This document shows, one piece after another, positions 1 to 14,570 of a DNA stretch of 23,993 nucleotides. Origin of the DNA: an uncultured virus (IMG/VR IMGVR_UViG_3300037517_002797). Lineage: Duplodnaviria > Heunggongvirae > Uroviricota > Caudoviricetes. The DNA lies in the IMG/VR virus record IMGVR_UViG_3300037517_002797; one strand, 5' to 3'. The position numbers were made by a program, and so were the translations under genes. The first letter of the stretch is position 1; each line of letters begins with the position of its first letter. The notes beneath the pieces were generated by a model that was given only the letters and a program-made list of their open reading frames with translations, ran no database searches and was not told the origin of the DNA.

Positions 1-1245
1 CTTACCTTCGCCCGGAATCCACGAACACATTTGGGATTCAAGGTCGGCTAGGTAGTTGATGTGATGAATACGTCCTTGCTCGTAGGCCAATGTAACTGGT
101 TCTGCCCGCAACGCTTTACCGTATTTTGAATGGACTTCAAGGACTTTAATGTGAGGATCAATTGCGTTGATTGCATTACGAACGAGTGCGCCACCTTGGT
201 TAACTTCAGCAACGACTGGACAACCATACTTACGTGCCATCGCAACAACCGCATTTGCCCAGACTTCTGGCGAACCATGAATTGTTGCGTCTTCCATTAC
301 CCATGCTTGACGTTTATACAAATCGTGATCTGCAGTTGATGCGCATACAACGATCCCGCATTCGTCACGTGGGTTCTCTGCGACTGACGGGTCAACGCCG
401 ACTACACGAAGTGGCGCGCCTACTGGAAATACGTCTTGCCTGCTTTTTTCAATCAATTCAATTGTCCAAAGCGCACCTTCAACGTCGCTCAACATTTCGC
501 CATAAAGTTCTTGCGCGGCCAGACGAGTACCCGCATATACGCCTGTGATTGCGTCAAGATAGGTTTCAGATAGGTTACCCGCATTGTCCATCGTTGAACC
601 TTTTGAAATAACGACACGACCAGTCTTTTCAGCTTCATTGATTAGTGCGTACAAAACAGGAACTCTTTTTGGGGTTGTTGTGCAAATGATCTGTGGCGAG
701 CTGCCAAGTCGCGTTCCCACTCGTAAGTTATCCCATGACGTCATGCCCGCAGCGTCGGGCGACTGACGCCACGCAGCGATTTCATCTGCCCAAGCATAGT
801 GGAATTGAGGACCGCGTAAACCATCTGGTTCATCGGCAGTAAAACATGTAGCCGTATTACCATTTGGCCATGTTAGTCGGCGCTTTGATGGTTCGTACAG
901 TGGTCGTTCGCTTGGAGGTGACACGTTGATGATACCTGACTCACCTTCAACGATAACGTCACGCACGTCAGCTGCAGTACGTGCAACAAGCGCGAACCGC
1001 AATTGACCTTTGTCAGTTCGCTTTGCCATATCGCGTACCCACTCAGCGGCTGCACGTGTCTTGCCAGCACCACGACCAGCTAGGTACATCCATATCGCCC
1101 AATCATCACCCGCAGGCGGTAACTGTTCTGGCCGAGCCCACGCTTTCCAGTCCCATATCAACTGTTCCATGTCAAGACCTTCAAGCACGGCACGTTGTTG
1201 ATCAACTGGAAGCAGTGCAATCTGCTCCATTACGCTTTTACCCAT
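1..1245 (-). CDS. terL: Terminase large subunit (3' end outside window)
   Basis: Manual translation: MGKSVMEQIALLPVD...WDWKAWARPEQLPPAGDDWAIWMYLAGRGAGKTRAAAEWV (Walker A GRGAGKT) ... LESQMCSWIPGEGK at the edge. In frame to base 1 with no stop in window, hence missing from the ORF track. Confidence 0.95.
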   Translation of the reverse strand, partial: MGKSVMEQIALLPVDQQRAVLEGLDMEQLIWDWKAWARPEQLPPAGDDWAIWMYLAGRGAGKTRAAAEWVRDMAKRTDKGQLRFALVARTAADVRDVIVEGESGIINVSPPSERPLYEPSKRRLTWPNGNTATCFTADEPDGLRGPQFHYAWADEIAAWRQSPDAAGMTSWDNLRVGTRLGSSPQIICTTTPKRVPVLYALINEAEKTGRVVISKGSTMDNAGNLSETYLDAITGVYAGTRLAAQELYGEMLSDVEGALWTIELIEKSRQDVFPVGAPLRVVGVDPSVAENPRDECGIVVCASTADHDLYKRQAWVMEDATIHGSPEVWANAVVAMARKYGCPVVAEVNQGGALVRNAINAIDPHIKVLEVHSKYGKALRAEPVTLAYEQGRIHHINYLADLESQMCSWIPGEGK

Positions 1246-1280
1246 GCGCTAATTGTATACCGCGTTAGACGCAGTGTGGG

Positions 1281-1442
1281 TTAATCGTTGTCCCACGCCT
1301 CGTATTCGTCATCGCCCATCAGGTTACGCAAATATCTTTCATTACTATCCGCGTCACGCTTTGCGATACGACGTAGTTCACGTTGGTCGTCCTCAACCGT
1401 GGTTGGACCACCTTCAAGTCTTAGGTATTCTGGTTCATTCAT
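1281..1442 (-). CDS. Hypothetical protein, 53 aa (MNEPEYLRLEGG...EAWDND)
   Basis: Manual translation; follows promoter motif at ~1471-1495 and a GAGG SD. Confidence 0.7.
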   Translation of the reverse strand: MNEPEYLRLEGGPTTVEDDQRELRRIAKRDADSNERYLRNLMGDDEYEAWDND

Positions 1443-1497
1443 GTATTGCCTCGTGCTTACTTATGTTGGTGAGTACATTGTATCGTCTTGAGTTTCA

Positions 1498-1653
1498 TTA
1501 ACGAACCGCAAGCGATGATTCTTCGTACCTTTCACGAGCGACCTTTTCAATCAATACTTGGTCATGGTATTGACCGCGTTCAACTAAACCATGATACGCG
1601 CTTTCGCATAACCGCTTACGTGTATCCTCGTCAAGGTCTTCCCAACGCTTCAT
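1498..1653 (-). CDS. Hypothetical protein, 51 aa (MKRWEDLDEDTRKRLCE...)
   Basis: Manual translation; AAGGAG SD upstream. Confidence 0.7.
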   Translation of the reverse strand: MKRWEDLDEDTRKRLCESAYHGLVERGQYHDQVLIEKVARERYEESSLAVR

Positions 1654-1666
1654 GCGTCTCCTTTAT

Positions 1667-1936
1667 TTATGGATTACTTGGTAGAAATAGTTGCTGCCCT
1701 GGATAGATCTCTGTGAAACCGTACTCTTGAACCAGGTCGTCAACCGCGTTGACTACGTTACCTGAACAATTTGCGTGGGCTATTTCCCACATTGTGTCGC
1801 CTTCTTGGACGATCACTGGCTTGGTATTGCAGACGTACGCATTGAATTGATTGTTCATGCTATTCCAAATAGCAAATGCAGCTGCGATTACCGCAATGAA
1901 TACCGCATACATCACTTTTTCAAGTACCTTTGTCAT
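1667..1936 (-). CDS. Membrane-anchored LysM domain protein
   Basis: N-terminal hydrophobic helix; VIVQEGDTMWEIA...IYPGQQLFLP is a LysM signature. Confidence 0.88.
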   Translation of the reverse strand: MTKVLEKVMYAVFIAVIAAAFAIWNSMNNQFNAYVCNTKPVIVQEGDTMWEIAHANCSGNVVNAVDDLVQEYGFTEIYPGQQLFLPSNP

Positions 1937-1978
1937 TTCATCTCCTGTCGTAATCCGCCTGAGTTAATTGTACAATCC

Positions 1979-2602
1979 TTAGTTCGTACTTGCCTTCGTC
2001 TTTTTGCGTATGGCTGGCCTTACTGTCTGGTGCAGTACATGGAACGGTGCTCCTGATCCAGCATCAAGCTTACCCGCAATATGAAGTGCTTCACGTACGA
2101 GCTTTTGAGTATCCGCAAGGCTCAATTCGTTGAGTGCGTCTCCCCACTTTGCGTACATCGCCGCGAGTGCGTAGTCACCACCTGAACCGAACGAGTAGAT
2201 ACCTGTGGTGTCACGAACCCATGCGTAGTCTTCTCCGATTTCATAGATCTGACCATTGATCATCGCAAGAACGGTAGAACCATGAACCGCTTGCTCCTTC
2301 TGCTCTTTTGCGACGTAGCCATGATCTTCAAAGCATTGACGAAGCGCTGGTATGAACTTACTTGTCATGAACCTGTCTAAACGGATCCCTGTCAAGTCAC
2401 CCGCGCTAGGAGGTGAGAATGCGTAGGCAAGAATGTTAATTGCCCGCACGTCGCCTGCTGCACCAAGAAGGTACTGACCATTTTTCATTACCTTCGCTGA
2501 ACCACGACCAAGTGTGTACGAACGTCCACCTTCTTCGGTAACCTTTGAGTCAAACCCTACGACCGCCCATGTTGGACCTTGAACCGCGATGATAGTCGTC
2601 AT
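1979..2602 (-). CDS. Proteasome beta/HslV-like N-terminal-threonine peptidase
   Basis: MTTIIAV start, DS..T, K, GAAGD and GSGGDYALAAM motifs typical of the Ntn-hydrolase proteasome-subunit fold. Confidence 0.85.
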   Translation of the reverse strand: MTTIIAVQGPTWAVVGFDSKVTEEGGRSYTLGRGSAKVMKNGQYLLGAAGDVRAINILAYAFSPPSAGDLTGIRLDRFMTSKFIPALRQCFEDHGYVAKEQKEQAVHGSTVLAMINGQIYEIGEDYAWVRDTTGIYSFGSGGDYALAAMYAKWGDALNELSLADTQKLVREALHIAGKLDAGSGAPFHVLHQTVRPAIRKKTKASTN

Positions 2603-2646
2603 TGTCTACACGATACCAGGTAGCGCCTGTTACCGCGTGACAATAC

Positions 2647-2847
2647 TTAGATGTTCCAACCGCTTGCGACGATGCCGTGGATATCTTTGAGCGCACGGAT
2701 ATCTACAGAAACCGACAGCTCGAAGTCGGCTAGGTGTTTTGCGAGCTCTTCAAGCTCTTCTTTACGAGTTTGGATTTCGTATCCAAGAACCGCAATACGA
2801 GCTTGAACTGACTCAAGATCTTTAGTGTGCTTCTTCTTGATTGCCAT
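2647..2847 (-). CDS. Hypothetical coiled-coil protein
   Basis: ORF track; start moved to the ATG after GAAAGGA. Confidence 0.7.
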   Translation of the reverse strand: MAIKKKHTKDLESVQARIAVLGYEIQTRKEELEELAKHLADFELSVSVDIRALKDIHGIVASGWNI

Positions 2848-2898
2848 GATTGATCCTTTCATGATCGGATGTACGAGACTACTTTACAGTCCTGAGAT

Positions 2899-3138
2899 CT
2901 AATTTCTGTTAGGCGTGTTGTGGTCCCAGAAGTCTTCTGGGTACGTGACTCCACATGAACCGCATTCAAATACGCCTGGCTTTACAGGCTTAGTACAACC
3001 GCGGCATGAGATCGGCCTTAGTGGAAGATCTGCATGCCGACGGTAGCGTACATCGTGGTTGCGCATAACATGAATCATATGCTGCGTGATCGTCTCAAAG
3101 AGATCGTCACAGAACATGCACTCATGCTTGGCTGCCAT
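2899..3138 (-). CDS. Zinc-finger protein (C2H2 plus CxxC-CxxC)
   Basis: CMFC...HVMRNH and CRGC...CGSC. Confidence 0.75.
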   Translation of the reverse strand: MAAKHECMFCDDLFETITQHMIHVMRNHDVRYRRHADLPLRPISCRGCTKPVKPGVFECGSCGVTYPEDFWDHNTPNRN

Positions 3139-3141
3139 TAC

Positions 3142-3513
3142 TTACCCGCGGACTCGTGAAGTGTACTGATCCGCATACCAGTCTTGATATTCCTGGTCTG
3201 CGACATCGCACATGATGCCCCATACTTGTCCAGCTGCTCGAGCGAATGTCTTACCGCGTACTGCGTATAGCTCGTCCTTGAAGTTTGCGTACTCAATGGC
3301 GTCAACCATGACATTCATGAAGTCTTGGAGCATTTCTTTTGTCACGTACACACGATACTGGTAGTCCCGCATAGGCGTGAACTCAATTTCTGCGCCTGAC
3401 ATTTCTTGAAGAGTCTCAAGTGACTTTCTGTCTCGAGCACGAACTGCTAGATGACCTGGCTTGGCCTTGTTGTCTACCGCGCTAATAAATCCATCTGGGG
3501 TGAACACCCACAT
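3142..3513 (-). CDS. Conserved hypothetical phage protein (MWVFT...VRAR...DYxYR type)
   Basis: ORF track; AAGGAG SD. Confidence 0.8.
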   Translation of the reverse strand: MWVFTPDGFISAVDNKAKPGHLAVRARDRKSLETLQEMSGAEIEFTPMRDYQYRVYVTKEMLQDFMNVMVDAIEYANFKDELYAVRGKTFARAAGQVWGIMCDVADQEYQDWYADQYTSRVRG

Positions 3514-3566
3514 ACTTTTCTCCTTGTCGTTTTGTCGTTGGGTGCGAACCTATTTATTTGATGTAA

Positions 3567-3755
3567 CTACTTCTCGATGAGGCTTTCCTGTACATCAGCA
3601 GGATCAACTTCTTCAACCTCAACAATGCCGTACTCTTCGTTCAGCATTCTTACAAATTCACGTCGCTTTTTATCACCGCGAACGTGAACTTCCATCGGAG
3701 TTCCGTCACGCATAACCGTACTTATTTTATAGACCTTCTGGTCATCGTGTTCCAT
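3567..3755 (-). CDS. Hypothetical protein
   Basis: ORF track; promoter motif and GAAGGAG SD upstream. Confidence 0.75.
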   Translation of the reverse strand: MEHDDQKVYKISTVMRDGTPMEVHVRGDKKRREFVRMLNEEYGIVEVEEVDPADVQESLIEK

Positions 3756-3797
3756 GCGCTTAACTCCTTCTTGTGTAACTATACATTCCCTAGAATT

Positions 3798-3965
3798 CTA
3801 TGATTTCTGAGCTAAGACCGCAAAGATAAGGCCAAGAACCCCAAAGCCTGCGATCAACTCGAAGCTGCCGCCTAATACCGCGGTGGCCAGGGCGACGATC
3901 CCTGAAACCACCGCGAGTACGGCAGTCCATACGAGGTTTCGCAATTGCGAGAACCAAGTAGGCAT
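3798..3965 (-). CDS. Small two-TM membrane protein, 55 aa (MPTWFSQLRNLVWTAVLAVV...)
   Basis: Manual translation; two hydrophobic stretches; starts 1 nt after the HTH gene stop. Confidence 0.75.
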   Translation of the reverse strand: MPTWFSQLRNLVWTAVLAVVSGIVALATAVLGGSFELIAGFGVLGLIFAVLAQKS

Positions 3966-3966
3966 G

Positions 3967-4155
3967 TTAGGCGCGCTCTGCCTTACGGGTACGACCCTTG
4001 AGGCGATCAGATGCGTTACGGATTGGGGTACCGCTTGCGCCGATGAGCTTGCGAACTTGTGCGTACGTCATGCTGTACTCTCGTGCAACTTCAATGACGC
4101 TCTGGCCTGATGCGTACAGTTCACCCGCACGCTGGGCTGTCAATTCGGTGGACAT
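3967..4155 (-). CDS. Helix-turn-helix DNA-binding protein (in-frame extension to TTG 4281 possible)
   Basis: ELYASGQSVIEVAREYSMTYAQVRKLI...GTPIR; GAAGGAG SD precedes both 4155 and 4281. Confidence 0.82.
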   Translation of the reverse strand: MSTELTAQRAGELYASGQSVIEVAREYSMTYAQVRKLIGASGTPIRNASDRLKGRTRKAERA

Positions 4156-4341
4156 AATTGTGCTCCTTCGTTGTGTACTTGCTGTTTTGATTGTGTCTAT
4201 GTCTTCTGCGATAAGTTGCAGAGTTAACCGCGACGTTGCAATAAGCGCAGCCGCTTCGTTGAGTAGTTTATCGTTACTCAAGATCTGTTCTCCTTCGTCA
4301 TTGGTGAGTACTATACCACTTACTTTTTAGAATTTTGTGAT

Positions 4342-4479
4342 CTACTCAAACATTTCTTTTTTTGGCTTTACAACGCCAAGTAGCGTCGTCGGTGCCTTTC
4401 GTTTCCTGTTGCGATCCCAGTAGACGTAGCCGTACCCTGCAGTAATGACCGCAAATACCAAAGCTGTAAGTCTTTTCAT
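4342..4479 (-). CDS. Small membrane protein, 45 aa (MKRLTALVFAVITAGYGYVYW...)
   Basis: Manual translation; ATGA overlap with the upstream gene. Confidence 0.65.
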   Translation of the reverse strand: MKRLTALVFAVITAGYGYVYWDRNRKRKAPTTLLGVVKPKKEMFE

Positions 4480-4631
4480 TTCTTGACCTGCTCCATTGAC
4501 ACAACCTTACTCGTGTGCTTTGCTGGATTTTGGCATGTCGGTGGCTCTGAAACATTGACGTAAACCGTGACCTTATTACCGCAATCTGGACACTTCCATA
4601 TAAACTTATTTTTTGGCTCTCGTTCGCTCAT
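4476..4631 (-). CDS. Zinc-ribbon protein
   Basis: WKCPDCG...PPTCQNPAKH; GAAGGA SD before ATG 4631. Confidence 0.75.
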   Translation of the reverse strand: MSEREPKNKFIWKCPDCGNKVTVYVNVSEPPTCQNPAKHTSKVVSMEQVKK

Positions 4632-4688
4632 GATAGTCCTTCTACTTTTGAGGAATGACACTATATACTATGGCACGAGGTAACCGCG

Positions 4689-4943
4689 TCATTTCGCAAG
4701 ACCTGCCTTTTTGGCGATCCGCTTGACCTTGCGACGTTCGTTTGCTGTGAGTCCTCCCCACACTCCTTCTTCGTTATTGCGTAGCGCGTAGTCCAAGCAC
4801 TCCTGCTTTACCGCGCACTTGTCGCAAATCTTCTTCGCTCTGTTGACAACTGTCCGCATGCGATCTTCAAAGAACAAATCGCCATGTCCGATACACGCTG
4901 CCTGTGCTCGCCAAATTCCAATGTCAACTATCCGTACTGTCAT
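4689..4943 (-). CDS. whiB: WhiB family Fe-S transcription factor
   Basis: WRAQAAC...LFF...AKKICDKCAVKQECLDYAL...GVWGGLTANER: four Cys plus GVWGG; GGAGG SD. Confidence 0.95.
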   Translation of the reverse strand: MTVRIVDIGIWRAQAACIGHGDLFFEDRMRTVVNRAKKICDKCAVKQECLDYALRNNEEGVWGGLTANERRKVKRIAKKAGLAK

Positions 4944-4988
4944 TTCGCCTCCCATGTATATTACTGTCTTGAGTTTGATCTACTTATG

Positions 4989-5050
4989 AGCTGCCAGCCT
5001 GGGACGACCCGCATCGCGGTACAAGGTTATCGTCCCGGCTAGCAGCATTC
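4989..5050 (-). terminator. Intergenic hairpin, possible terminator
   Basis: gctgccagcctgggacga...tcgtcccggctagcagc imperfect inverted repeat. Confidence 0.5.
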
Positions 5051-5062
5051 GCATGGGTGCGA

Positions 5063-5578
5063 TCAACAAATGCTGAAGCCGCCGCTGTCTTTCAAGAAGT
5101 CAGCAAACGCTCTAACATTTTCTACATCAAACGGATAATTGGTGTCAAAAGGGTTGACTTCACCTTCGCCATTGCACCCATTGCACCAGCCGTAATCACG
5201 ACCAACAACTACCGCAACTGCTTCATCGAGCTTTCGCTCTGGCATACCCATGTCTTGACCAACCGCATCTGTCCTGACGCCTGTGCCTTCGCAGTACTTG
5301 CATTGTTCACGAGGTTGGCTTGCAATCAAATTGCGGTACATCGCTTCATATATTGCAGTGCGACCGCTTGCGAGCTCGTTGTACAGTATGACTGATAGAT
5401 CATCTGCGCCTTCAGCACCAAGTCCATCGCCTCCATTGCTGTGGCCATCAACACCCGCAACAAGATCTTCTGCAACTATAGTGCAGTATTCCCACAGCGG
5501 ACGCCAGTACCAAACATTGTTGCGAAAGTACTCGCCACTTTTAGATTTTGGCTCTTTGCCAAATACATCCATACCCAT
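5063..5578 (-). CDS. Hypothetical protein with DnaJ-type CxxCxGxG zinc motifs
   Basis: CKYCEGTG and CNGCNGEG; start MGMDVFG after AAAGGAC SD. Confidence 0.8.
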   Translation of the reverse strand: MGMDVFGKEPKSKSGEYFRNNVWYWRPLWEYCTIVAEDLVAGVDGHSNGGDGLGAEGADDLSVILYNELASGRTAIYEAMYRNLIASQPREQCKYCEGTGVRTDAVGQDMGMPERKLDEAVAVVVGRDYGWCNGCNGEGEVNPFDTNYPFDVENVRAFADFLKDSGGFSIC

Positions 5579-5640
5579 GCTTGTGTCCTTTGTCATTTGA
5601 AGCAGGCCACCTGTTGACCCGCGCCATTATCTTACTTTCC

Positions 5641-5862
5641 TTAGAAATTACCTGAAGCCGGGTGATTTCTCTTTGACCGCAACATATCTATGTCGTCACG
5701 GCCGACCTGAACAGTGTCCATTAGGTTAGCCCACGCCAATTCTCTGCGAAGACCGCGCTCCACTGCTGTTAGTGCTTCATGAGACGCGCTGTAGCTCGCT
5801 GTAGCGAGGCAGAGTGCCATAAAGGCTTGGACTACCGCAACGAGTGCTAGAAACGTAATCAC
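5641..5862 (-). CDS. Hypothetical membrane-anchored protein
   Basis: ORF track; GTGA overlap with upstream ORF; C-terminal RNHPAS. Confidence 0.7.
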   Translation of the reverse strand: MITFLALVAVVQAFMALCLATASYSASHEALTAVERGLRRELAWANLMDTVQVGRDDIDMLRSKRNHPASGNF

Positions 5863-5960
5863 TTACGTCCCCTGGTCATTGAGATTCCCGCAATCAAAAA
5901 TACTGCAATCGCCCAGGCTACCGCACTAATTGAATTGTATAAGTCAATATGAATTTCCAT
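5859..5960 (-). CDS. Small membrane peptide, 33 aa (MEIHIDLYNSISAVAWAIAVFLIAG...)
   Basis: Manual translation; AAGGAG SD. Confidence 0.6.
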   Translation of the reverse strand: MEIHIDLYNSISAVAWAIAVFLIAGISMTRGRK

Positions 5961-6087
5961 GATCTCTCCTTGTTGTTGTTGTGAATTACATAATACTTGG
6001 TGGTCTGGCCAATTTTGTGACTAACCACCGCGTCTGGATCTAATATACTTTCCTTAGAAAGTACTCCAGCTTACCCGCAAACCCTTA

Positions 6088-6195
6088 TTACGCCTCGCAA
6101 TCGTGTCCGTAGGCTGCTTCAGCTGCATCTTGCTCGCTGGTTAGATCAAACACTCGCCCGCATTCAACGCACTGGGTCATTGTCTGCATTTCCAT
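6088..6195 (-). CDS. Small zinc-binding protein, 35 aa (CVECGRVFDL...YGHDCEA)
   Basis: Manual translation; promoter motif plus GAGGAG SD. Confidence 0.7.
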   Translation of the reverse strand: MEMQTMTQCVECGRVFDLTSEQDAAEAAYGHDCEA

Positions 6196-6256
6196 GCTCT
6201 GTCTCCTCTTGTTGTTGGTATAGACATAATACTTTCTTGAGTTCTGGGCCTAGCCC

Positions 6257-6406
6257 CTATCGCCCGGATACCCGGACGATAAGGGTTTGGCGCGCTTGTG
6301 GCGCTTGGTTGGCCCAGTACTGATTACACTTCGTCTTGCTCCCACCGAAGACGATGAGTTTTCGCGACTGATCGTAGACTTCGTGTGCTCTGGTTGATGG
6401 CTTCAT
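6257..6406 (-). CDS. Hypothetical protein, 49 aa; paralog of 12001-12159
   Basis: KPSTRAHEVYD...CN.[YF]W..QAPQ.RQ.L.VRV shared; motif plus SD upstream. Confidence 0.8.
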   Translation of the reverse strand: MKPSTRAHEVYDQSRKLIVFGGSKTKCNQYWANQAPQARQTLIVRVSGR

Positions 6407-6470
6407 GATTTGGTCCCTTCGTCGTGGTGATGAGATCATTATAAAGTCCTGAGTTCTTACAACTAACCCA

Positions 6471-6689
6471 CTACTCCCACAGACCAGTCTTGCGGTTTCC
6501 CACCAATGGGTACTCAAAGTTAAGGTACCCCACTTCAAAGTCACCCGCAAAGCGATTGGTTGAGATGACTGTCGTCATATCAATACCGCAACGCTTGAGG
6601 TCATTGAAGAATGATGAGACAAGATGTGAGTACATCACTCGCTGACGGATCATTTGTCCATCGTGAAACTGAACGATGCTCTTGTTCAT
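6471..6689 (-). CDS. Hypothetical protein
   Basis: ORF track; motif plus GAAAGGAC SD. Confidence 0.75.
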   Translation of the reverse strand: MNKSIVQFHDGQMIRQRVMYSHLVSSFFNDLKRCGIDMTTVISTNRFAGDFEVGYLNFEYPLVGNRKTGLWE

Positions 6690-6781
6690 TGCGTTGTCCT
6701 TTCGTTAGGTTGACGAGACCATTGTACGATCCTGAGTTTGCCAGCCAGCCCGCATAAGCAGGCCAGCCGGCAACTCGTTAC

Positions 6782-7003
6782 TTAGTTGAATTGCTTGGTA
6801 ACCGGGTTGAATTCAAATGGATCGTACTCGTTTGCCGACTTGCTTGGCATCAAACCAGTCAATGTCCATTCAAATGACTCTTTGCTCTCACGAAGTACTT
6901 CGGCAAGCTCTTGAACTTCTTCCCGCATGTCTGTGATCTTGCGGCTCAGTTCGTAGATACGTGCCTCGGCGGCCTTCGGGTTGTTTGCGTACTTCTTTTT
7001 CAT
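6782..7003 (-). CDS. Hypothetical coiled-coil protein
   Basis: ORF track; motif plus GAAAGGAC SD. Confidence 0.75.
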   Translation of the reverse strand: MKKKYANNPKAAEARIYELSRKITDMREEVQELAEVLRESKESFEWTLTGLMPSKSANEYDPFEFNPVTKQFN

Positions 7004-7030
7004 GTTGTCCTTTCGGTTAGGTTGACGATG

Positions 7031-7396
7031 CTACTTTACTGTCTCGAGAACGCTTCCCGCAGCTGCCTCAATGAACTCTTTCAGCACTTGAATGTGCTCA
7101 TCGCTAAGTCCCTGCGTCTCGCCATCCGCATCTGGTGTCCCAGTCAATACAACCGTACCTACGATGTAGTCGGTTTCTTGGCCAAATGACATGTCCCAAA
7201 AGACTTGAGCAATTGGATTGTGCTCGAGTCTAATCATCTTGCCTTCTTCGTTGACCCAAAGCGAGAGGATGTTGCTGAGGTCAATTGCTTGTACCCAGCC
7301 TCCAACCGCAGTCTGCAACACGCTGAGCTCGTCAGGCTTTGAGAAGTCAATTACTTCAACCTCGCCTGCCGGCGTAATCTTAATTCCTTGCTTCAC
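7031..7396 (-). CDS. DUF3846-like protein
   Basis: LSVLQTAVGGWVQ...WVNEEGK...LEHNPIA...DYIVGTVVLTG. Confidence 0.85.
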   Translation of the reverse strand: MKQGIKITPAGEVEVIDFSKPDELSVLQTAVGGWVQAIDLSNILSLWVNEEGKMIRLEHNPIAQVFWDMSFGQETDYIVGTVVLTGTPDADGETQGLSDEHIQVLKEFIEAAAGSVLETVK

Positions 7397-7444
7397 TTTG
7401 TCTCCTTTGTCGTTGGTGAGTTCATTATATGTTCCGAAGTTTTG

Positions 7445-7478
7445 TCAGGCGAGCGCGTGGGGGACGCGCGTCGCTGAC
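7445..7478 (-). terminator. Hairpin after the 7491 ORF
   Basis: gtcaggcgagcgcgt-gggg-acgcgcgtcgctgac. Confidence 0.5.
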
Positions 7479-7490
7479 GGATTGATCTGG

Positions 7491-7667
7491 TTATCTGGTA
7501 ATCGTGATGAGATTATAGACGTCGAAGTCGTCGTTTGAAATCGTCGCGATATCGTTGGTCGTTAGATCGTTCGCGAGAAAATATTCGTACGCGTCGTACG
7601 CGCAGGAATCGTTATCGAGATTGATCGTGTATTTTCCGGATGGAACGCTGATCGTGTAGGTTTTCAT
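7491..7667 (-). CDS. Leaderless hypothetical protein, 58 aa (MKTYTISVPSGKYTINLDND...)
   Basis: Manual translation; TATAAT-AATCTC-ATG. Confidence 0.72.
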   Translation of the reverse strand: MKTYTISVPSGKYTINLDNDSCAYDAYEYFLANDLTTNDIATISNDDFDVYNLITITR

Positions 7668-7726
7668 GAGATTATTATACGTTCCCTAGTTTTACCCGCA
7701 AGGGTTGGTAGGGTAGGGCTTGCGCC

Positions 7727-7924
7727 CTATCCCATGCGCCTCGCTTCGGCCATTGCCTCGGCATGGACCGCGCCGGAGCTCACTTCGCCTACCCACACCG
7801 CATACTCGCTCGAGTTCAGGGTTTCACGTGCTTCGGCGAGTTCGGCCTCTGTCGCATCCAATTCAAGCGTTGGTGGGTTGTCGCCGTGCTTTGCGAGGTA
7901 TCCCCATTCAATTACCACCATCAT
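7727..7924 (-). CDS. Hypothetical protein
   Basis: ORF track, start moved after GAAGGAG; a GCAA-loop hairpin overlaps the stop. Confidence 0.72.
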   Translation of the reverse strand: MMVVIEWGYLAKHGDNPPTLELDATEAELAEARETLNSSEYAVWVGEVSSGAVHAEAMAEARRMG

Positions 7925-8081
7925 TCTCTCCTTCGTCGTTGGTTGTGAGTACATATTACTGTCTCGAGTTTACTACCGCGCTAGGACGTGAGTTTGTTGA
8001 TGCGCGTGCGAAGACGTGCGGCGGCTAACTCGGGACTGTAAAATATAATCGTTATACCAACCCAATACGAAAGCGAAAAAC

Positions 8082-8324
8082 ATGGCACAATACTCCATCA
8101 GCATCGACTATAACGACGAACCATACGAAACCGGCCTAACGCTCGACGAACTAATCGCCCTCTACCTTCCAGCCGGCGTCAGCTTCGTTCGTTACGCCTG
8201 GCGTAACCCGCACCAGCCAAACGACGTCACGATTATCGTAAACGCGAACGACGAAACCGATCTAAACGAACTCTGCGATTACGCCGGCGTAAACGATCCC
8301 GACGAACTCGAGCGCGTTTTATAA
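8082..8324 (+). CDS. Hypothetical acidic protein in inverted cassette
   Basis: ORF track; plus-oriented motif AACTCGGGACTGTAAAAT at ~8027; terminator downstream. Confidence 0.8.
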   Translation: MAQYSISIDYNDEPYETGLTLDELIALYLPAGVSFVRYAWRNPHQPNDVTIIVNANDETDLNELCDYAGVNDPDELERVL

Positions 8325-8351
8325 CGCGAACGCGATCCTCAAACGAACTAA

Positions 8352-8381
8352 CCCGGGCGTCTTACAGCGTCCGGGCTTTTT
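8352..8381 (+). terminator. Intrinsic terminator
   Basis: cccgggcg-loop-cgtccggg followed by cttttt. Confidence 0.8.
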
Positions 8382-8429
8382 CGTGCGCATTTTCAGCTGC
8401 AAAAAACTAGGGTAAGTATAATAATAAAC

Positions 8430-8606
8430 ATGAAAACCTACACAACACTTACATATGTAAACCACCACGACGAAGTGCATTGCGTACAATGCGCAAGCAA
8501 CTCAACCGAATTCCTTATCCCCGCGCCTTACACGTACAACCCGCAAACCGACGCTTACGACCTATTTTGCCTCCTCTGCGACACGCAAATTCACGAAACC
8601 TTATAA
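8430..8606 (+). CDS. Leaderless zinc-finger protein, 58 aa (MKTYTTL...HCVQC...FCLLCDT)
   Basis: Manual translation; AACTAGGGTAAGTATAAT-7 nt-ATG; two CxxC. Confidence 0.75.
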   Translation: MKTYTTLTYVNHHDEVHCVQCASNSTEFLIPAPYTYNPQTDAYDLFCLLCDTQIHETL

Positions 8607-8633
8607 ACTTTACAAACCACGCAAACACGAACC

Positions 8634-8663
8634 AGCCCGGCGCTCATCGCGACCGGGCTTTTT
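8634..8663 (+). terminator. Intrinsic terminator
   Basis: agcccgg...ccgggct followed by tttt. Confidence 0.8.
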
Positions 8664-8674
8664 CGCGTCCCGAA

Positions 8675-8899
8675 TTACATCGGGAACGCTCGCTTGATAT
8701 TCATCTCCGCGTACCACTCGTTCAGGCCCTTTATTTTTTCTTCAACCGCGCTCAGAATTTCCCCGATCTCTTCGCTCGAGAACTCTCCATCACGAACCAG
8801 TTCACGAACCAGCCCACCGTAAACCAGATCAGCTTCGCGATCCGCGCCTTCAATCGTTTCAACGATCTCACACGCCTTATCGTCTAATCTCTCGTCCAT
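8675..8899 (-). CDS. Hypothetical protein; paralog of 12378-12584
   Basis: MDER[LI]DDKA.EI.E..EG.D...VYG.LVRELV..G.F..EEIG.IL..VEEK shared. Confidence 0.85.
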   Translation of the reverse strand: MDERLDDKACEIVETIEGADREADLVYGGLVRELVRDGEFSSEEIGEILSAVEEKIKGLNEWYAEMNIKRAFPM

Positions 8900-8963
8900 C
8901 GTATTCCTTTCGTCGTAGTGATAGGATCATTATACGATCCGGAGTTTTCCCAGCACTGGCAGT

Positions 8964-9032
8964 CTACGGCTGATCGCGCAGCCAAACAGCTGCCATCAGC
9001 GTAAGCGCCGACAGTAGTACTAGCAAGTCCAC
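8964..9032 (-). CDS. Hydrophobic micro-peptide, 22 aa (MDLLVLLSALTLMAAVWLRDQP)
   Basis: Own motif plus AAAGGAG SD, GTG start. Confidence 0.55.
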   Translation of the reverse strand: MDLLVLLSALTLMAAVWLRDQP

Positions 9033-9076
9033 CCGCGCTCCTTTTTTCGTTGTGAGTACATTATACTTTCCCGATT

Positions 9077-9307
9077 TTAGCTTTCGGGAAGCATGTCGCA
9101 GAGCTCGTCGAGCTGGTTGTCGCGGCACATGCTGGCGAAGTCGGCTTCGGTAAAGTTGCTTGGGAAGTTGAGGGTGAATGTGATGAGGTTGTCGTCGGCG
9201 ATGTCGTACGTGAAGTTTGAAAATGTTAGGTCGTGTTCGGCGGCGGCGATAAATAGTGGCTCGAGTGCGCCGCGGTCGGAAGCGCTGGTGATTTGCATTG
9301 GTTTCAT
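9077..9307 (-). CDS. Hypothetical acidic protein
   Basis: ORF track; motif plus GAAAGG SD. Confidence 0.75.
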   Translation of the reverse strand: MKPMQITSASDRGALEPLFIAAAEHDLTFSNFTYDIADDNLITFTLNFPSNFTEADFASMCRDNQLDELCDMLPES

Positions 9308-9364
9308 GTTTTGTGCCTTTCGTCGTTGTGTAAGTTTATTATACTCTCCCGAGTTTTTGTCGCG

Positions 9365-9568
9365 TTACGCGACGCTCACCCAGACTGGTCGGGTATCGGG
9401 ACGGACGGCGTAGGCGACGAAGCGCCCAGCGATTGCGTGTTCGTGAAGTATTGCGCGCTGTTCGTGTGTGAGCAGGCTGAGAAGAAGGTGGTATGAGTCG
9501 TTATGAATAAGGGTGGCTGGTTTATCGGGATTCTGGATTAGTGATGAGTATTCGTTGGTCGATGTCAT
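9365..9568 (-). CDS. Leaderless hypothetical protein (MTSTNEY...)
   Basis: TATAAT-GATTAC-ATG. Confidence 0.7.
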   Translation of the reverse strand: MTSTNEYSSLIQNPDKPATLIHNDSYHLLLSLLTHEQRAILHEHAIAGRFVAYAVRPDTRPVWVSVA

Positions 9569-9612
9569 GTAATCATTATACAATCCCGAGTTTTGTACTC
9601 TTGTTGCCCGCG

Positions 9613-9798
9613 CTACGCATGCGCCGGCATCACGACAATCTGCTCGTCGTATCCCCAAACCGTCTTTCCTGACTCGAGCGTCATGTCAAAGCCTGGTTGA
9701 CCATTCTTGACATCCGCATACTTCCCAGTCACTACACCCGTACGGAGCACGCCGCCCCAGGTCTCGTAACTAATCGTGTCGCCTATTTTGTAATCCAT
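9613..9798 (-). CDS. Small SH3/Tudor-like beta protein; paralog of 14077-14271
   Basis: MDYK[IV]GDT..Y...G...GV.T.K...QPGF.MT...WG.D.QI shared. Confidence 0.82.
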   Translation of the reverse strand: MDYKIGDTISYETWGGVLRTGVVTGKYADVKNGQPGFDMTLESGKTVWGYDEQIVVMPAHA

Positions 9799-9841
9799 GT
9801 TTTGTCCTTTCGTTGTGAGATCATTTTACGATCCGGAGTTC

Positions 9842-10015
9842 CTACCCCAGCTCTTTCATCAACCGCGCAACCTCGACGGCAGTCAACTTCTCTTCACGCT
9901 TATACACCCGTACCAATTCTTCCATCGCTTCGTACGGGTCGCAGTGCGAGTACTCGTATTTAACCATCTCGAGAATGTCACTCGCCATTTGCTTGATGTC
10001 TTTTGTCGTTGTCAT
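9842..10015 (-). CDS. Leaderless hypothetical protein, 57 aa (MTTTKDIKQMASDILE...)
   Basis: Manual translation; TAGAAT-AAGACC-ATG. Confidence 0.72.
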   Translation of the reverse strand: MTTTKDIKQMASDILEMVKYEYSHCDPYEAMEELVRVYKREEKLTAVEVARLMKELG

Positions 10016-10033
10016 GGTCTTATTCTACTTTCC

Positions 10034-10294
10034 CTAGAGGTCCTCAAGCTCTTTCACGAAGCCGGCGATAACCCATTCTTCGTAATCTTCAACCGCGCGC
10101 TCGGTCGCATTGCCGATGATCCTCGCAAGGCCTTTCGCCGTGTCAACCCGCTTGCGCAGGTAGGCTAGGCGCTCGCCGTCATCTTCGTTCTCGATGCTTT
10201 CAATCCGCTTGAGGATTGATAGCACTTCGCCGCCGATAGCTGTCTCGAGCCAGGTTAGTTGGGTCAGTGTAAGTTCAACGCTGTACTTTTTCAT
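10034..10294 (-). CDS. Leaderless hypothetical protein
   Basis: ORF track; TAGAAT-GACGAC-ATG. Confidence 0.78.
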   Translation of the reverse strand: MKKYSVELTLTQLTWLETAIGGEVLSILKRIESIENEDDGERLAYLRKRVDTAKGLARIIGNATERAVEDYEEWVIAGFVKELEDL

Positions 10295-10327
10295 GTCGTC
10301 ATTCTACTTTCTTGAGTTTTAGAGTCT

Positions 10328-10498
10328 TCACCCGCGCCTTGGCGGGCACTCAAGTAATCGGTTGATTACCTGAGACATCATCTGCTTCGTGAGAGCTGGG
10401 TCTTCAGCTGTCCGCAACAGCCACATGTTGTTTACTTCCCGCTCGAGTAGCAGCCGCTTTACCAGCTGCCTCTGCGCTGTCGTTGGTCCGTATTCCAT
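10328..10498 (-). CDS. Leaderless hypothetical protein, 56 aa (MEYGPTTAQRQLVKRLLLERE...)
   Basis: Manual translation; TAGAAT-GGTGAC-ATG. Confidence 0.72.
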   Translation of the reverse strand: MEYGPTTAQRQLVKRLLLEREVNNMWLLRTAEDPALTKQMMSQVINRLLECPPRRG

Positions 10499-10521
10499 GT
10501 CACCATTCTACTTTCCTGAGT

Positions 10522-10752
10522 TCAGTCCCAGCGGGACGGTGGACTGTAGTCCTTGCTCACCGTCTTGCTGCATTGCGGGCATTCCGCCTCCACATCATCG
10601 CAACCGCGCTCGTCAACCGTGACATCTGATTCAGTCCACTCGTGATCGCAGTCACTGCAGAAGAAGTCCATGTCTACTTCAATGTCGTTGTACCCCGGGA
10701 GGTCTCTTTCATAGCAACCCGGTGGTAAGTTGAATCCTGATCCAAAGCCCAT
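10522..10752 (-). CDS. Zinc-ribbon protein
   Basis: FNLPPGC, CSDCDHEW...CPQCSK; motif plus AAGGAG SD. Confidence 0.8.
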   Translation of the reverse strand: MGFGSGFNLPPGCYERDLPGYNDIEVDMDFFCSDCDHEWTESDVTVDERGCDDVEAECPQCSKTVSKDYSPPSRWD

Positions 10753-10803
10753 TGTTCTCTCCTTGTGTCGTCGTGTATGAGATCATTATAGGTTCCGGAG
10801 AAC

Positions 10804-10953
10804 CTATTCGGCCCACCGCTTGCCTCGGCAGGCTTGCCGTGCGGCGATCCGCTTCTTGTTGGGGACTTGAGTCGCCCGCAGGATATTGCGGTCGGCAAAC
10901 GCCTGGCGGTCGCCTTCGGTCCATCGTGTATTTGGTTTGGTCGCTGTTTTCAT
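10804..10953 (-). CDS. Leaderless basic protein, 49 aa (MKTATKPNTRWTEGDRQAFAD...)
   Basis: Manual translation; TATAAT-GATCTC-ATG. Confidence 0.72.
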   Translation of the reverse strand: MKTATKPNTRWTEGDRQAFADRNILRATQVPNKKRIAARQACRGKRWAE

Positions 10954-10978
10954 GAGATCATTATACATTCCTGAGTTT
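10953..10978 (-). promoter_or_regulatory. Exemplar copy of the cassette promoter (AACTCAGGAATG TATAAT GATCTC A)
   Basis: Perfect TATAAT preceded by TG; no conserved -35 across copies; conserved CTCAGGA just upstream. Confidence 0.85.
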
Positions 10979-11213
10979 ACTGCGCCTCGATGTCCTGGCG
11001 CAGTACCCGCAACTTCATTGCGAAGATGAGGACATCGTCATCTTCTTTCAGCTGGTCGGTCGCTTTCTCAAGCTCGAGCGCAAACTCATCGCGGAAGATG
11101 AGTTCATACTCAAGACAGTAATTGGCCTCGTAGATCGCGTTGAACGTGTCATGGAGGTCAAGTTGGCCTTCGATGCGCTCGATGACATCGAGCTTGGTCT
11201 CTTTCGTGTTCAT
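10977..11213 (-). CDS. Hypothetical protein
   Basis: ORF track; start moved to the ATG after GAAAGGA. Confidence 0.75.
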   Translation of the reverse strand: MNTKETKLDVIERIEGQLDLHDTFNAIYEANYCLEYELIFRDEFALELEKATDQLKEDDDVLIFAMKLRVLRQDIEAQ

Positions 11214-11258
11214 GGGATTCCTTTCGCCGTGGTGTGATCTCATCTTACTTTCCAGAGT

Positions 11259-11378
11259 TTACCACCCTGTCCTTGCGTACCAGTAGTGGTAGTGGCGGGC
11301 GCTCTTGATCCCGCGTCGGATTCCGGCTTTCTTGGTCCAGAAGATTCCGATCTGCACTGCACCGATGAATCGTTTCAT
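11259..11378 (-). CDS. Basic peptide, 39 aa (MKRFIGAVQIGIFWTKKAGIRRGIKSARHYHYWYARTGW)
   Basis: Manual translation; motif plus SD; paralogs at 11679 and 11821. Confidence 0.75.
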   Translation of the reverse strand: MKRFIGAVQIGIFWTKKAGIRRGIKSARHYHYWYARTGW

Positions 11379-11428
11379 TTTGGGTCCTTTCGTCGTGGTG
11401 TACGAGATCATTATACATTCCTCAGAAC

Positions 11429-11653
11429 GCTGAGGACGCCACAGCGGAGGTAGCTAACCTCACCGCAAGTTCCCCGTCGGGCGTTGCGAACTTGAACCGT
11501 ATGTAAGAGGAGGGCGGATGTCGTGAGAGGAGGACGGATACCGTGGTCCCGGGAACCGCGTAGAGCCTTATCTTCTGAACAGAGCCTTATCATTCAGTGA
11601 CGTCTCGTTCGCAACCTTGCGGCTGCTATGATGTCCTCAACGTGCTGAGGCAT
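11429..11653 (-). ncRNA. Putative structured ncRNA, family A copy 1 (~225 nt)
   Basis: Own promoter, no SD leader; collinear homology and covarying helices with 14322-14544. Confidence 0.8.
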
Positions 11654-11678
11654 GTACTCATTTTACTTTCCGGAGTTT

Positions 11679-11771
11679 CTACCACTTATGGAAGTTAGTG
11701 GCGGTGCGGAATCCGTGACGGATTCCATACGCACGGGAGCATGCGATGAACATTCTCAGTCTCAGAATCAT
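11679..11771 (-). CDS. Basic peptide, 30 aa (MILRLRMFIACSRAYGIRHGFRTATNFHKW)
   Basis: Manual translation; motif plus SD; GIRxG motif. Confidence 0.68.
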   Translation of the reverse strand: MILRLRMFIACSRAYGIRHGFRTATNFHKW

Positions 11772-11820
11772 TACTGGTCCTTTCGTCGTGGTGATGAGTT
11801 AATTATACTTTCCGGAGTTT

Positions 11821-11940
11821 CTACCACCGGGTCCTTGGAGCCCAGTAGTAGAAGTGGCGGCCCGTTTTGACGCCGGCGCGGATGCCGTTGGTACGTGCCA
11901 CCCCAATCCCAATCTTGATTGCGCGGATGATTGCTTTCAT
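11821..11940 (-). CDS. Basic peptide, 39 aa (MKAIIRAIKIGIGVARTNGIRAGVKTGRHFYYWAPRTRW)
   Basis: Manual translation; motif plus SD; paralog of 11259. Confidence 0.75.
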   Translation of the reverse strand: MKAIIRAIKIGIGVARTNGIRAGVKTGRHFYYWAPRTRW

Positions 11941-12000
11941 TTCGTGTCCCTTCGTCGTGGTGATGAGTACATTTTACTTTCCCGAGATTACGTGCCGCCC

Positions 12001-12159
12001 TTATCGGGCGGCCACGCGGACCTCGAGATCCTGCCGGACTTGGGGAGCCTGCGCCACCCAGAACTTGTTGCAGTTTTCACGTGAACCTGAGAACCTGATC
12101 AACTTGAACTTGCGATCATAAACCTCGTGGGCTCGGGTTGATGGCTTGGTCGTTTTCAT
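12001..12159 (-). CDS. Hypothetical protein, 52 aa; paralog of 6257-6406
   Basis: MKTTKPSTRAHEVYDRKFKLIRFSGSRENCNKFWVAQAPQVRQDLEVRVAAR. Confidence 0.8.
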   Translation of the reverse strand: MKTTKPSTRAHEVYDRKFKLIRFSGSRENCNKFWVAQAPQVRQDLEVRVAAR

Positions 12160-12207
12160 CTTTCGTCCTTTCGTCGTAGGTATGAGATCATTATACTTTC
12201 CTGAGTT

Positions 12208-12324
12208 TTAGTTGGATTGCTCCCACAGGTGAAGATCGGCGTTCTCTGGCGCTGGACAGGGTACGTCGTAATCCATCCAATCTTGATACGTGAATCCGCA
12301 TTTACAGGTTTGATCTGAATCCAT
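12208..12324 (-). CDS. Small Cys/His protein (MDSDQTCKCG...)
   Basis: Start after GAAAGGAC. Confidence 0.68.
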   Translation of the reverse strand: MDSDQTCKCGFTYQDWMDYDVPCPAPENADLHLWEQSN

Positions 12325-12377
12325 ATTCAGTCCTTTCGTCGTTTGAACTTGTGAGATCATTATACTTTCCTGAGTTT

Positions 12378-12584
12378 TTACATCCCCATCTTCTCGTACC
12401 ACTCACTCAGGATCTTGACCTTTTCTTCCACCTCGTTCAAGATCATTCCGATCTCTTCGTTCGTGAATTTTCCTTCTTGAACCAGTTCACGAACTAACTC
12501 GCCGTAAACTTGATTCACGTCAAGATCTGATCCTTCCATGATCTCGCAGATCTCGCTCGCTTTATCGTCTATTCTTTCGTCCAT
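12378..12584 (-). CDS. Hypothetical protein; paralog of 8675-8899
   Basis: ORF track; alignment by eye. Confidence 0.85.
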   Translation of the reverse strand: MDERIDDKASEICEIMEGSDLDVNQVYGELVRELVQEGKFTNEEIGMILNEVEEKVKILSEWYEKMGM

Positions 12585-12633
12585 TATTTTCCCTTCGTCG
12601 TGGTTACGAGATCATTATACGATCCCGAGTTTT

Positions 12634-12699
12634 AGTACTGGGTGGATAACTCAGACGCCGCCCAGTGCGACGAGGTTAGAGCAGTGTTATCCAACTGCG
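12634..12699 (-). ncRNA. Putative small RNA cassette G (~65 nt)
   Basis: Own promoter, no usable ORF; two hairpins plus TGGATAAC/GTTATCCA complementarity. Confidence 0.5.
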
Positions 12700-12722
12700 A
12701 TGATCATTATAAGTTCCCGAGT

Positions 12723-12890
12723 TCAGTCAGCTAGTCGCATGGCCGCTTCCATTGCGTCTTCGTGGTCAGCGCCGCAGTCTACCGCCGCTTCATACTGGGC
12801 CTGCCGCCTAGGCGTTAGGGCCTCAAACTCAAGGCGGGCCTTTCGGACCTTCGGGTTACTTGCCTCTCCAAATGCTGTGATCGTCGTCAT
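12723..12890 (-). CDS. Leaderless hypothetical protein, 55 aa (MTTITAFGEASNPKVRKARLEFE...)
   Basis: Manual translation; TAAAGT-AGTGGC-ATG. Confidence 0.72.
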   Translation of the reverse strand: MTTITAFGEASNPKVRKARLEFEALTPRRQAQYEAAVDCGADHEDAMEAAMRLAD

Positions 12891-12914
12891 GCCACTACTT
12901 TACATTCCTGAGTT

Positions 12915-13226: not shown

Positions 13227-13293
13227 TGCTTGGTCCCTTCGTTGTTCGTTGATGAGATCATTATAGGATCCTGAGATCCCGTCAGCCGAAGCC

Positions 13294-13527: not shown

Positions 13528-13577
13528 TGCTTGTCCTTTCGTCGTAGGTTGATGAGATTATTTTACAATCCTGAGAA

Positions 13578-14544: not shown

Positions 14545-14570
14545 GCTATCATTCTACATTCCGTAGTTTG

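Follow-up and report, generated by a model that had tools for sequence, protein, structure and literature searches.

The 23,993-nt stretch of DNA analysed here, referred to as the window, belongs to an uncultured phage of the Caudoviricetes (IMG/VR record IMGVR_UViG_3300037517_002797) and carries, over much of its length, an array of a short, strand-polarised word, MCCGCR on the plus strand of the window. The window is the minus strand of part of a 48,261-bp contig (G000:C1:22483-46475). Unless window positions are given, we use the contig orientation, in which the genes of the region are almost all rightward and carry the word on their sense strand as 5'-YGCGGK-3', with YGCGG as its conserved core. 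The contig is a 48-kb fragment of a freshwater actinophage of ~130 kb. Its genes include two WhiB-like regulators, a ribonucleotide reductase, a CHAP endolysin, an AAA+/VWA pair, an HslV-like peptidase and a T4-type large terminase, and its start interrupts a Fpg/Nei glycosylase gene. The gene of the terminase large subunit (TerL; PF03237, PF17289) occupies window 1..1245 on the minus strand, which encodes the N-terminal 415 of its 477 amino acids, the rest lying off the window.

According to TerL, the best named relative is Actinomycetia phage DSL-LC01 (89% identical), a circular metagenome assembly of 129,469 bp. Further relatives are Microbacterium phages of the Pumpernickel group (61%) and Gordonia phages such as GodonK (49%). 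A second contig of 69 kb, G001, was 100% identical to contig 16,550-48,261 (31,712 bp). It starts at contig 16,550, just ahead of a tRNA-Thr gene, and extends 37 kb further right, reaching the portal gene and structural genes. A nucleotide search of the phage collection with the first 8 kb of the window returned no match. The predicted host of DSL-LC01 is given as "Actinomycetia", and no finer, in the available part of its description (PMC10611076). Together with the two WhiB genes, this suggests a host for the present phage that we place no finer than Actinomycetia. A protein search of genome contigs with WhiB gave a sole match, from Bacteroidota, which was rejected as spurious.

The plus strand of the whole window held 80 copies of MCCGCR against 11 of the reverse complement, the same numbers as in the array itself (window 1..14692, plus strand), and the final copy lay at 14,687-14,692. 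The original prediction, made by eye, had reported 52 plus-strand copies and a handful of reverse complements in window 1-6600 and no copy at 20,900-23,993. Our recount returned exactly 52 and 4, and the position of the final copy agrees with the empty right end. The top strand-asymmetric tetramer in the first 7 kb of the window was CCGC (71 vs 12). In the whole contig, YGCGGK occurred 107 times forward and 26 times in reverse, with 12 forward copies in the left 30 kb. The information content of the flanking positions revealed no longer consensus around the hexamer: the flanks contributed at most 0.35 bit per position, the strongest preference being an A preceding the word in the window orientation.

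The array spans ~16 kb and comprises about 100 copies. Its densest part in the window (1..7476, plus strand; contig 39,000-46,475) had 6-10 copies per kb, spaced more evenly than random, and was followed by a thinning tail of 0-6 copies per kb (7477..14692, plus strand). The array also runs about 1.1 kb past window position 1 (L003 6476-7540). In the dense part, the forward:reverse ratio was about 13:1. Along the contig, the density rises from 31 kb and reaches 11 per kb at 47-48 kb. Per kb leftwards from contig 47,560, the copies numbered 16, 7, 8, 6, 10, 6, 9, 7, 6, 5, 3, 4, 4, 0, 2, 3, 0, 0, 0 and 0, and density fell with distance from the boundary of the array (Spearman rho -0.92, p = 7e-9). 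Among the 72 sites at contig 39,000-47,560, the coefficient of variation (CV) of the gaps was 0.64, against 0.98 for random placement, and none of 5000 random sets was as even. Gaps shorter than 30 bp numbered 4 (15.5 expected), and the gaps in this interval showed neither 3-bp nor helical periodicity. The G+C content of the array zone was below that of the array-free neighbour region.

The last 360 bp of the array are non-coding and hold nine copies, several as TGCGGGTNAC. This nine-site cluster lies downstream of TerL and of a gene for a small peptidoglycan-binding protein. It is adjoined on its left by a 38-bp tandem repeat (2.3 copies, 98% matching; contig 47,188-47,275, L003 7188-7275) and on its right by a bidirectional terminator (contig 47,549-47,570, L003 7549-7570), the only strong one of the region. 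The terminator hairpin, of 9 bp including 8 GC, stands between an A run and a T run and separates the rightward early and middle genes from a small leftward gene for a coiled-coil protein of 81 amino acids. Further left, 25 copies of a conserved early promoter/5'-leader unit lie on the minus strand at window 6438..19556 (contig 26,920-40,038), each ahead of a small gene. The unit reads roughly AAACTCnGGAAnnTATAATGATCTCA, then ACGACGAAAGGAC, a few bases and ATG. It has no classical -35 hexamer, and a conserved GGAA box stands directly upstream of the -10. In this stretch, the sense strand had 32 occurrences of TATAAT, compared with 4 on its complement. The units overlap the thin half of the array only, and the dense half (contig 40.0-47.5 kb) has none.

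Enrichment was assessed over contig 35,001-48,261. Genes were called with a simple in-house scorer of open reading frames (ORFs), not a trained gene finder, so that "intergenic" is only approximate. This region contained 90 forward and 7 reverse copies of YGCGGK, where base frequencies predict 12.8 and 300 dinucleotide shuffles gave 15.8 ± 4.1 forward copies (maximum 30). Within the gene calls, 60 forward copies were observed, as compared with 19.2 ± 3.5 (maximum 29) in 300 synonymous-codon shuffles and 12.0 ± 3.3 (maximum 26) in 300 codon-order shuffles. The enrichment was thus 6-7 fold overall and still three to five fold when the shuffles preserved codons (z about 12). Outside the gene calls, 29 forward and 2 reverse copies occurred in 4.8 kb, a density equal to that of coding DNA (60 in 8.6 kb). 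The reverse word within genes (5 copies) was at its shuffle expectation (6.6 ± 2.2), indicating no clear avoidance of that orientation.

The 107 forward copies of the contig were distributed 42/16/10 over the three sense frames, with 27 intergenic, 1 on a gene edge and 11 antisense, the latter in small, mostly doubtful gene calls. The original prediction had argued from intergenic copies that codon usage alone does not explain the word. Those at window 1259, 2632, 4683, 6074, 7695 and 7975 did fall outside gene calls; the one at 6027 sat on a gene edge. The same prediction had named two outcomes that would overturn it, loss of the excess in codon-preserving shuffles and confinement of the copies to one frame. 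The excess persisted, and copies were found in all three frames and in non-coding DNA. These data indicate that the word is a selected, oriented signal and not a product of codon usage, as had been proposed.

We considered whether the array might nevertheless have no function and be a by-product of codon or dipeptide usage, of composition or of strand-biased mutation. The commonest frame, xxY GCG GKx (42 of the 68 sense copies), is the one of least protein cost, as would be expected of a by-product. The margin over codon-preserving shuffles, the equal density in non-coding DNA, the lower G+C of the zone relative to its array-free neighbour, and paired synonymous differences that split array-bearing from array-free lineages, described below, make this explanation barely credible. 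A coding tandem repeat of the collagen-like Gly-X-Y type, with spacings in multiples of 9 bp, was likewise rejected: the gaps here range from 12 to 387 bp and lack 3-bp periodicity.

A TerL search of IMG/VR yielded 230 relatives, of which 80 loci were kept, several of them duplicates of one phage. Fixed thresholds, applied to 8 kb upstream of TerL plus 2 kb, sorted the loci into 32 with a strong forward excess of YGCGG, 20 with a weak one and 28 with none. In five longer genomes (69-129 kb), a single zone of 14-18 kb ended 2-4 kb past the TerL start and the remainder was at background density. The YGCGG core was conserved, whereas the preference for G or T (K) at the 3' end was specific to the present lineage, any base (N) following the core elsewhere. 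Array-free relatives were near the shuffle expectation for YGCGG, and no convincing alternative polar word was found in them. Two of these, L053 and L058, showed a slight depletion of the forward word that was marginal under dinucleotide shuffles. In the TerL genes of the same two loci, we observed 0-1 forward but 8 and 6 reverse copies of YGCGG, an opposite bias in small numbers.

The TerL gene of the present phage carries 12 forward copies of YGCGG and 1 reverse, mostly from synonymous codons at conserved residues. A codon alignment of 13 array-bearing lineages contained 36 site columns, 12 of which were occupied in a single lineage. At the same residues, array-bearing and array-free lineages used CGC GGT versus CGT GGT, GCT GCG GGC versus GCT GCA GGT, AAT GCG GGT versus AAC GCT GGA, TTG CGG versus CTT CGT, and TGC GGG versus TGT GGA; at GCG GGT sites, the array-free codons were GCA or GCT followed by GGA. 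These synonymous differences, together with the turnover of positions, indicate that selection acts on the word as a nucleotide sequence and maintains how densely it occurs, not where. They are direct evidence of selection at the level of DNA.

One candidate for the source of this selection is a phage-encoded, strand-specific protein to which the sites belong: a coating or silencing protein, a nickase, for which the strand-specific nickase of T5 is a model, or an enzyme modifying a single strand. The presence or absence of the array among close relatives, with no alternative word, would fit gain and loss of a phage-encoded reader, as would a 3' letter preference that varies by lineage, and the even spacing with few gaps below 30 bp would suit a footprint. 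By contrast, no candidate reader was found, a coating protein needs neither a ramp nor a single orientation, and nicks every 120 bases would break up one strand. We regard such a protein as an unlikely reader.

We also scanned viral contigs for three close copies of TGCGGGT and obtained at least 121 stretches, of which 80 loci were counted and 14 profiled per kb. Among the matches listed, only L177, which is the same contig as L004, belongs to this phage family, and the other profiled arrays were rejected as local coding repeats, such as the collagen-like L175 and L176. Gly-X-Y repeats of this type (GGT CCT GCG GGT ...), which also occur in giant-virus bins, place TGCGGGT on one strand at multiples of 9 bp. 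The scan is neutral on the use of the word by unrelated phages.

The orientation of the word could belong to the DNA or to its transcripts. Two early-type genes in the array run against their neighbours. The first, of 80 amino acids (window 8082..8324, plus strand), has its own promoter-like and ribosome-binding sequences and carries 1 site in the array orientation and 0 in the opposite one. The second, of 58 amino acids (window 8430..8606, plus strand), has its own reversed promoter and leader and carries 2 and 0. Relatives L007, L012, L014 and L059 contributed six more inverted genes, each preceded by a reversed promoter and leader of its own. Genes of this kind replaced long antisense ORFs as the inverted set, the latter being mostly spurious. 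Together, the eight inverted genes (1,764 nt) held 15 sites in the array orientation and 2 in the opposite one, against base-frequency expectations of 4.7 and 2.9 (p = 0.025), and their density, 8.5 per kb, was that of the surrounding array. Because these genes keep the orientation of the array, the polarity belongs to the DNA and not to the mRNA.

The same data bear on a signal at the transcript level, acting in the mRNA or, during transcription, on the non-template strand. It could be a pause site, a site of cleavage by an endoribonuclease that silences early transcripts in the manner of T4 RegB at GGAG, or a protein-binding site that protects the common 3' end. Several features speak for such a signal. 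Nearly every gene of the zone has the word on its sense strand, and at least one copy is present in 16 of the 17 genes of ≥50 amino acids at contig 39-47.2 kb. The array ends at the region's only strong terminator, with nine copies in the 3' untranslated stretch, and TGCG matches part of the elemental pause consensus. Against it stand the inverted genes, which have their own promoter and leader yet keep the DNA orientation, and an enrichment of the opposite orientation on the antisense strand of the late genes right of the boundary. Moreover, copies are absent from the immediate-early units at contig 26.9-31 kb, the array of relative G002 ends without a comparable terminator, and an Rfam scan of contig 20-48 kb matched no family. 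We therefore consider a transcript-level role quite unlikely.

Right of the boundary, where genes on G001 still run rightwards, MCCGCR occurred 10 times in 4 kb, compared with 0.64 per kb further on (p = 3e-4). In all five genomes compared, the reverse word exceeded its shuffle expectation 1.2-1.8 fold over the 4 kb adjoining the boundary on this side. The polarity is thus a property of the DNA region, and it converges just beyond TerL, the left side contributing strongly and the right side weakly. The first gene right of the boundary encodes a protein of 188 amino acids (L091 16881-17447, minus strand; G001) and heads the late operon. This protein is conserved in 96 database clusters and has no match in Pfam or PHROG. 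Its predicted structure (mean predicted local distance difference test score 80.7) has two helical, helix-turn-helix-like halves joined by a disordered linker; a search of the PDB gave no match at E ≤ 0.001, the best rows being sigma factors at E about 1. The protein may be a small terminase or a late transcription factor.

We next consider whether a DNA end lies near this point. Depth was taken from Logan contigs of four lake runs over contig 44.0-48.26 kb, each contig having one mean k-mer depth. In all four runs, the Logan contigs break at the 38-bp tandem repeat. The long contig to its left (8.8-21.4 kb) had depths of 20.4, 34.5, 17.9 and 32.9. In run X15, the left contig at 17.9 was followed by 1 kb at 19.8 and, from L003 8220, by a contig at 9.04. 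The longer contigs on the right had depths of 11.7, 20.1 and 16.9 in the remaining runs. Depth was therefore about twofold higher left of L003 7223-8254 than right of it in all four runs, and the step coincides with the end of the contig. These values fit a two-fold level to about contig 48,255 and a single level beyond, which suggests a collapsed terminal repeat.

Terminal repeats are established in relatives: the GodonK record has an exact terminal direct repeat of 7,581 bp and that of Pumpernickel one of 19,963 bp, both full of small genes upstream of TerL. Depth and these repeats together suggest that a terminal redundancy of the present phage ends about 0.7 kb beyond the array, at contig ~48.26 kb. 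The redundancy may be long and possibly includes TerL. The orientation of the word fits an end at that position. We rejected one apparent parallel in the GodonK repeat (L108 3000-6200), where GTGGTG occurs 21 times against 2: it stems from the leader GAAAGG-CACCAC-AATG of minus-strand genes. Repeated translation-start regions can thus mimic a polar DNA word.

An end at the boundary would also suit a track or stop signal for a double-strand DNA translocase, steering it to the terminal-repeat boundary or halting it there. The motor could be a terminase seeking its cut site or an FtsK/SpoIIIE-like pump, and the two-step DNA transfer of T5, whose first step stops, provides a model. The DNA-level polarity regardless of gene direction speaks for such a track, as does the ramp that ends in the nine-site cluster beside the 38-bp tandem repeat and the presumed repeat boundary. 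The weak convergence of orientations there recalls FtsK-orienting polar sequences (KOPS), which converge on dif, and the early-type small genes and 25 strong promoter units of the zone resemble the takeover modules of terminal repeats. On the other side, known orienting words are 8-mers of far lower density, and no FtsK-like protein was detected among roughly 60 ORFs scanned on the contig and beyond the boundary. To our knowledge, terminases do not read dispersed words, and we know of no example of sequence-dependent braking of ejection. Overall, a translocase signal appears rather unlikely. That the array is a phage-owned, strand-read track which a DNA-moving machine follows or is braked by, and not host Chi, is in our estimate improbable. 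If true, the climb in density would mark the end of the long terminal repeat or the halting point of the first step in polar DNA entry. It would amount to a ruler written in sequence, and we know of no sequence code that sets genome ends or two-step injection.

A long terminal repeat could likewise bear on replication. The sites might prime lagging- or displaced-strand synthesis, a phage primase reading CCGC(R) and primers starting with GCGG. The primase words of T7 and T4 are short and strand-specific, DSL-LC01 encodes a primase/helicase, and duplicating a long terminal repeat could need dense priming. Yet the rest of the genome, which needs priming too, is at background, the left half of the presumed repeat has no sites, and the ramp is left unexplained. 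Priming is in our view a very improbable function.

The reading that we favour, tentatively and at somewhat less than even odds, is that the array works like Chi, as a shield and a track for recombination, by controlling a helicase-nuclease that processes DNA ends. It fits best because of the ramp to the boundary, the orientation independent of genes, the turnover of sites at kept density, and a geometry like that of the terminal Chi clusters of phages. As is typical of Chi, the word is short, asymmetric, over-represented and independent of frame and coding (90 copies against 12-19 under four null models). As in Chi-rich phages, many sites of one orientation lie at one presumed genome end, with one zone per genome. 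The enzyme reading the word would most likely be a host enzyme of the AdnAB, AddAB or RecBCD type, or possibly a phage-encoded one. We infer, then, a DNA end at ~48.26 kb, a nuclease as the reader, and a host that owns such an enzyme and uses the word.

In the mechanism that we propose, the helicase-nuclease would load on a double-strand end just right of the array. This entry end could be the right end of the long terminal repeat or an end freed by a terminase cut there; in the latter case, it would be the free upstream end left when terminase cuts near 48.26 kb and packages rightwards. Moving leftwards, the enzyme would read the strand that ends 3' at the entry end, which is the word-carrying strand, and at each site it would have some chance of switching from degradation to the production of a 3' tail and the loading of RecA. 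With ~100 sites, one per roughly 120 bp and densest by the end, the switch would be near-certain within the first kilobase or two. The early genes would be spared, and the recombinogenic tail would serve circularisation, repeat by repeat, or the formation of concatemers.

Several observations weigh against this Chi-like reading. Two strains sharing the segment may give the same depth step, and the runs are possibly the source samples. The array ends at the bidirectional terminator, 0.7 kb short of the presumed end, and those 700 bp have no site where about 5 would be expected at the density of the zone. No reverse-oriented array was found at the other candidate end (contig 16.5-20 kb), and the cultured relatives with proven terminal repeats, Pumpernickel and GodonK, have no YGCGG array. 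The flip of orientation beyond the boundary is weak, with p = 0.003-0.79 in Fisher tests that took the genome background as reference. Even spacing was significant in the present lineage only, the CV being 0.82, 1.00 and 0.94 in three relatives. The class of Chi-rich phages is marked by the absence of a recombination module and of a nuclease inhibitor, whereas the depositors' annotation of relative DSL-LC01 lists a RecA-like recombinase, a PD-(D/E)XK nuclease, a helicase and a RuvC-like resolvase. Finally, in the available part of the relevant report, regulation of AdnAB by any Chi is described as not known (PMC4824097). Across the 80 loci, contig ends showed no accumulation at the boundary: the +2-3 kb bin held 6 of 50, and bins averaged about 5.

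Elsewhere on the contig and outside the window, a leftward block (L001 5617-14751) carries an auxiliary gene set unusual for a phage: two 2-oxoglutarate-Fe(II) oxygenase-like genes, a staphylococcal-nuclease homologue, a fatty-acid desaturase and a beta-helix protein of 1303 amino acids.

A literature search found no earlier description of the array, and the accessible text of the DSL-LC01 paper makes no mention of the motif. If the word is Chi, it would be the first sequence put forward as a regulator of the nucleases that process DNA ends in Actinobacteria, and the array supplies both a defined pentamer, YGCGG (YGCGGK in this lineage), and a substrate made by nature. The strategy of terminal Chi clusters, recently described for phages of enteric bacteria and Pseudomonas, would then reach large, uncultured actinophages of fresh water as well. 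Whatever reads the word, selection at the DNA level is strong enough to set the choice between synonymous codons across about 40 genes. The array should be allowed for when genes are called, hosts are predicted from codon usage or recombination is analysed in these phages.

The array can be compared with several known systems. The stoperators of Cluster A mycobacteriophages are repressor-bound sites of 13-14 bp, oriented with transcription and numbering about 25-35 per genome. Like them, the array consists of asymmetric sites in one orientation repeated through an actinophage genome, but its word has 5-6 bp, its about 100 copies lie mostly in genes, and its orientation ignores gene direction. 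Of the mechanisms offered in the original prediction, the stoperator-like one thus fits poorly and the Chi-like one best, with KOPS-like, packaging and ejection-polarity signals less probable than Chi. KOPS and the SpoIIIE recognition sequences, read by FtsK and SpoIIIE, respectively, are oriented G-rich 8-mers at kilobase spacing over whole replichores, converging on a point. Orientation, G-richness and convergence on a defined point are shared; by contrast, the present word has 5-6 bp, converges strongly from the left side only, and is accompanied by no FtsK-like match among the proteins scanned. T5 and SPO1 have long terminal repeats that carry early small genes. Pumpernickel and GodonK share with the present phage the terminase clade and dozens of small genes upstream of TerL, but have an exact terminal repeat and no YGCGG array, whereas the repeat of the present phage is deduced from depth.

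The closest parallels are phages LLS of E. coli, MD8 of P. aeruginosa and P1, in which, according to the available text of the report describing them, 23-50 host Chi sites of one orientation cluster at the RecBCD entry end, the one-orientation share being 20 of 23 in LLS and 32 of 32 in MD8 (Zheng et al., Genome Res 2025; PMC12315714). In the same text, recombination of the P1 terminal repeats requires RecA and RecBCD, and the Chi-rich phages are without recombination modules (PMC12315714). On that account, these phages and the present one have in common a short asymmetric word far above expectation, the exclusion of codon usage, one orientation in nearly all copies, and a concentration of copies towards a genome end, presumed in the present phage, at which the host nuclease would enter. 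They differ in that the former use the known 8-mers of their hosts at about 1 per 2 kb genome-wide and lack recombination genes, whereas here a 5-6-mer occurs at 1 per 120 bp within 16 kb and a relative is annotated with several such genes. The Chi sequences of AddAB-type enzymes, given in the accessible portions of two reports as 5'-AGCGG in B. subtilis and 5'-GAAGCGG in S. aureus (PMC5959072; PMC4824097), offer a further likeness. The B. subtilis Chi begins with A and the present word with Y, and the resemblance is one of sequence, the hosts here being Actinobacteria; as far as those portions go, the pentamer length, the GCGG core and recognition on one strand are shared with Firmicute AddAB. 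A Chi-like array would add to the known cases a word and a host phylum that are both new, at ten times the density, and a reader belonging to a phage machine would be something new.

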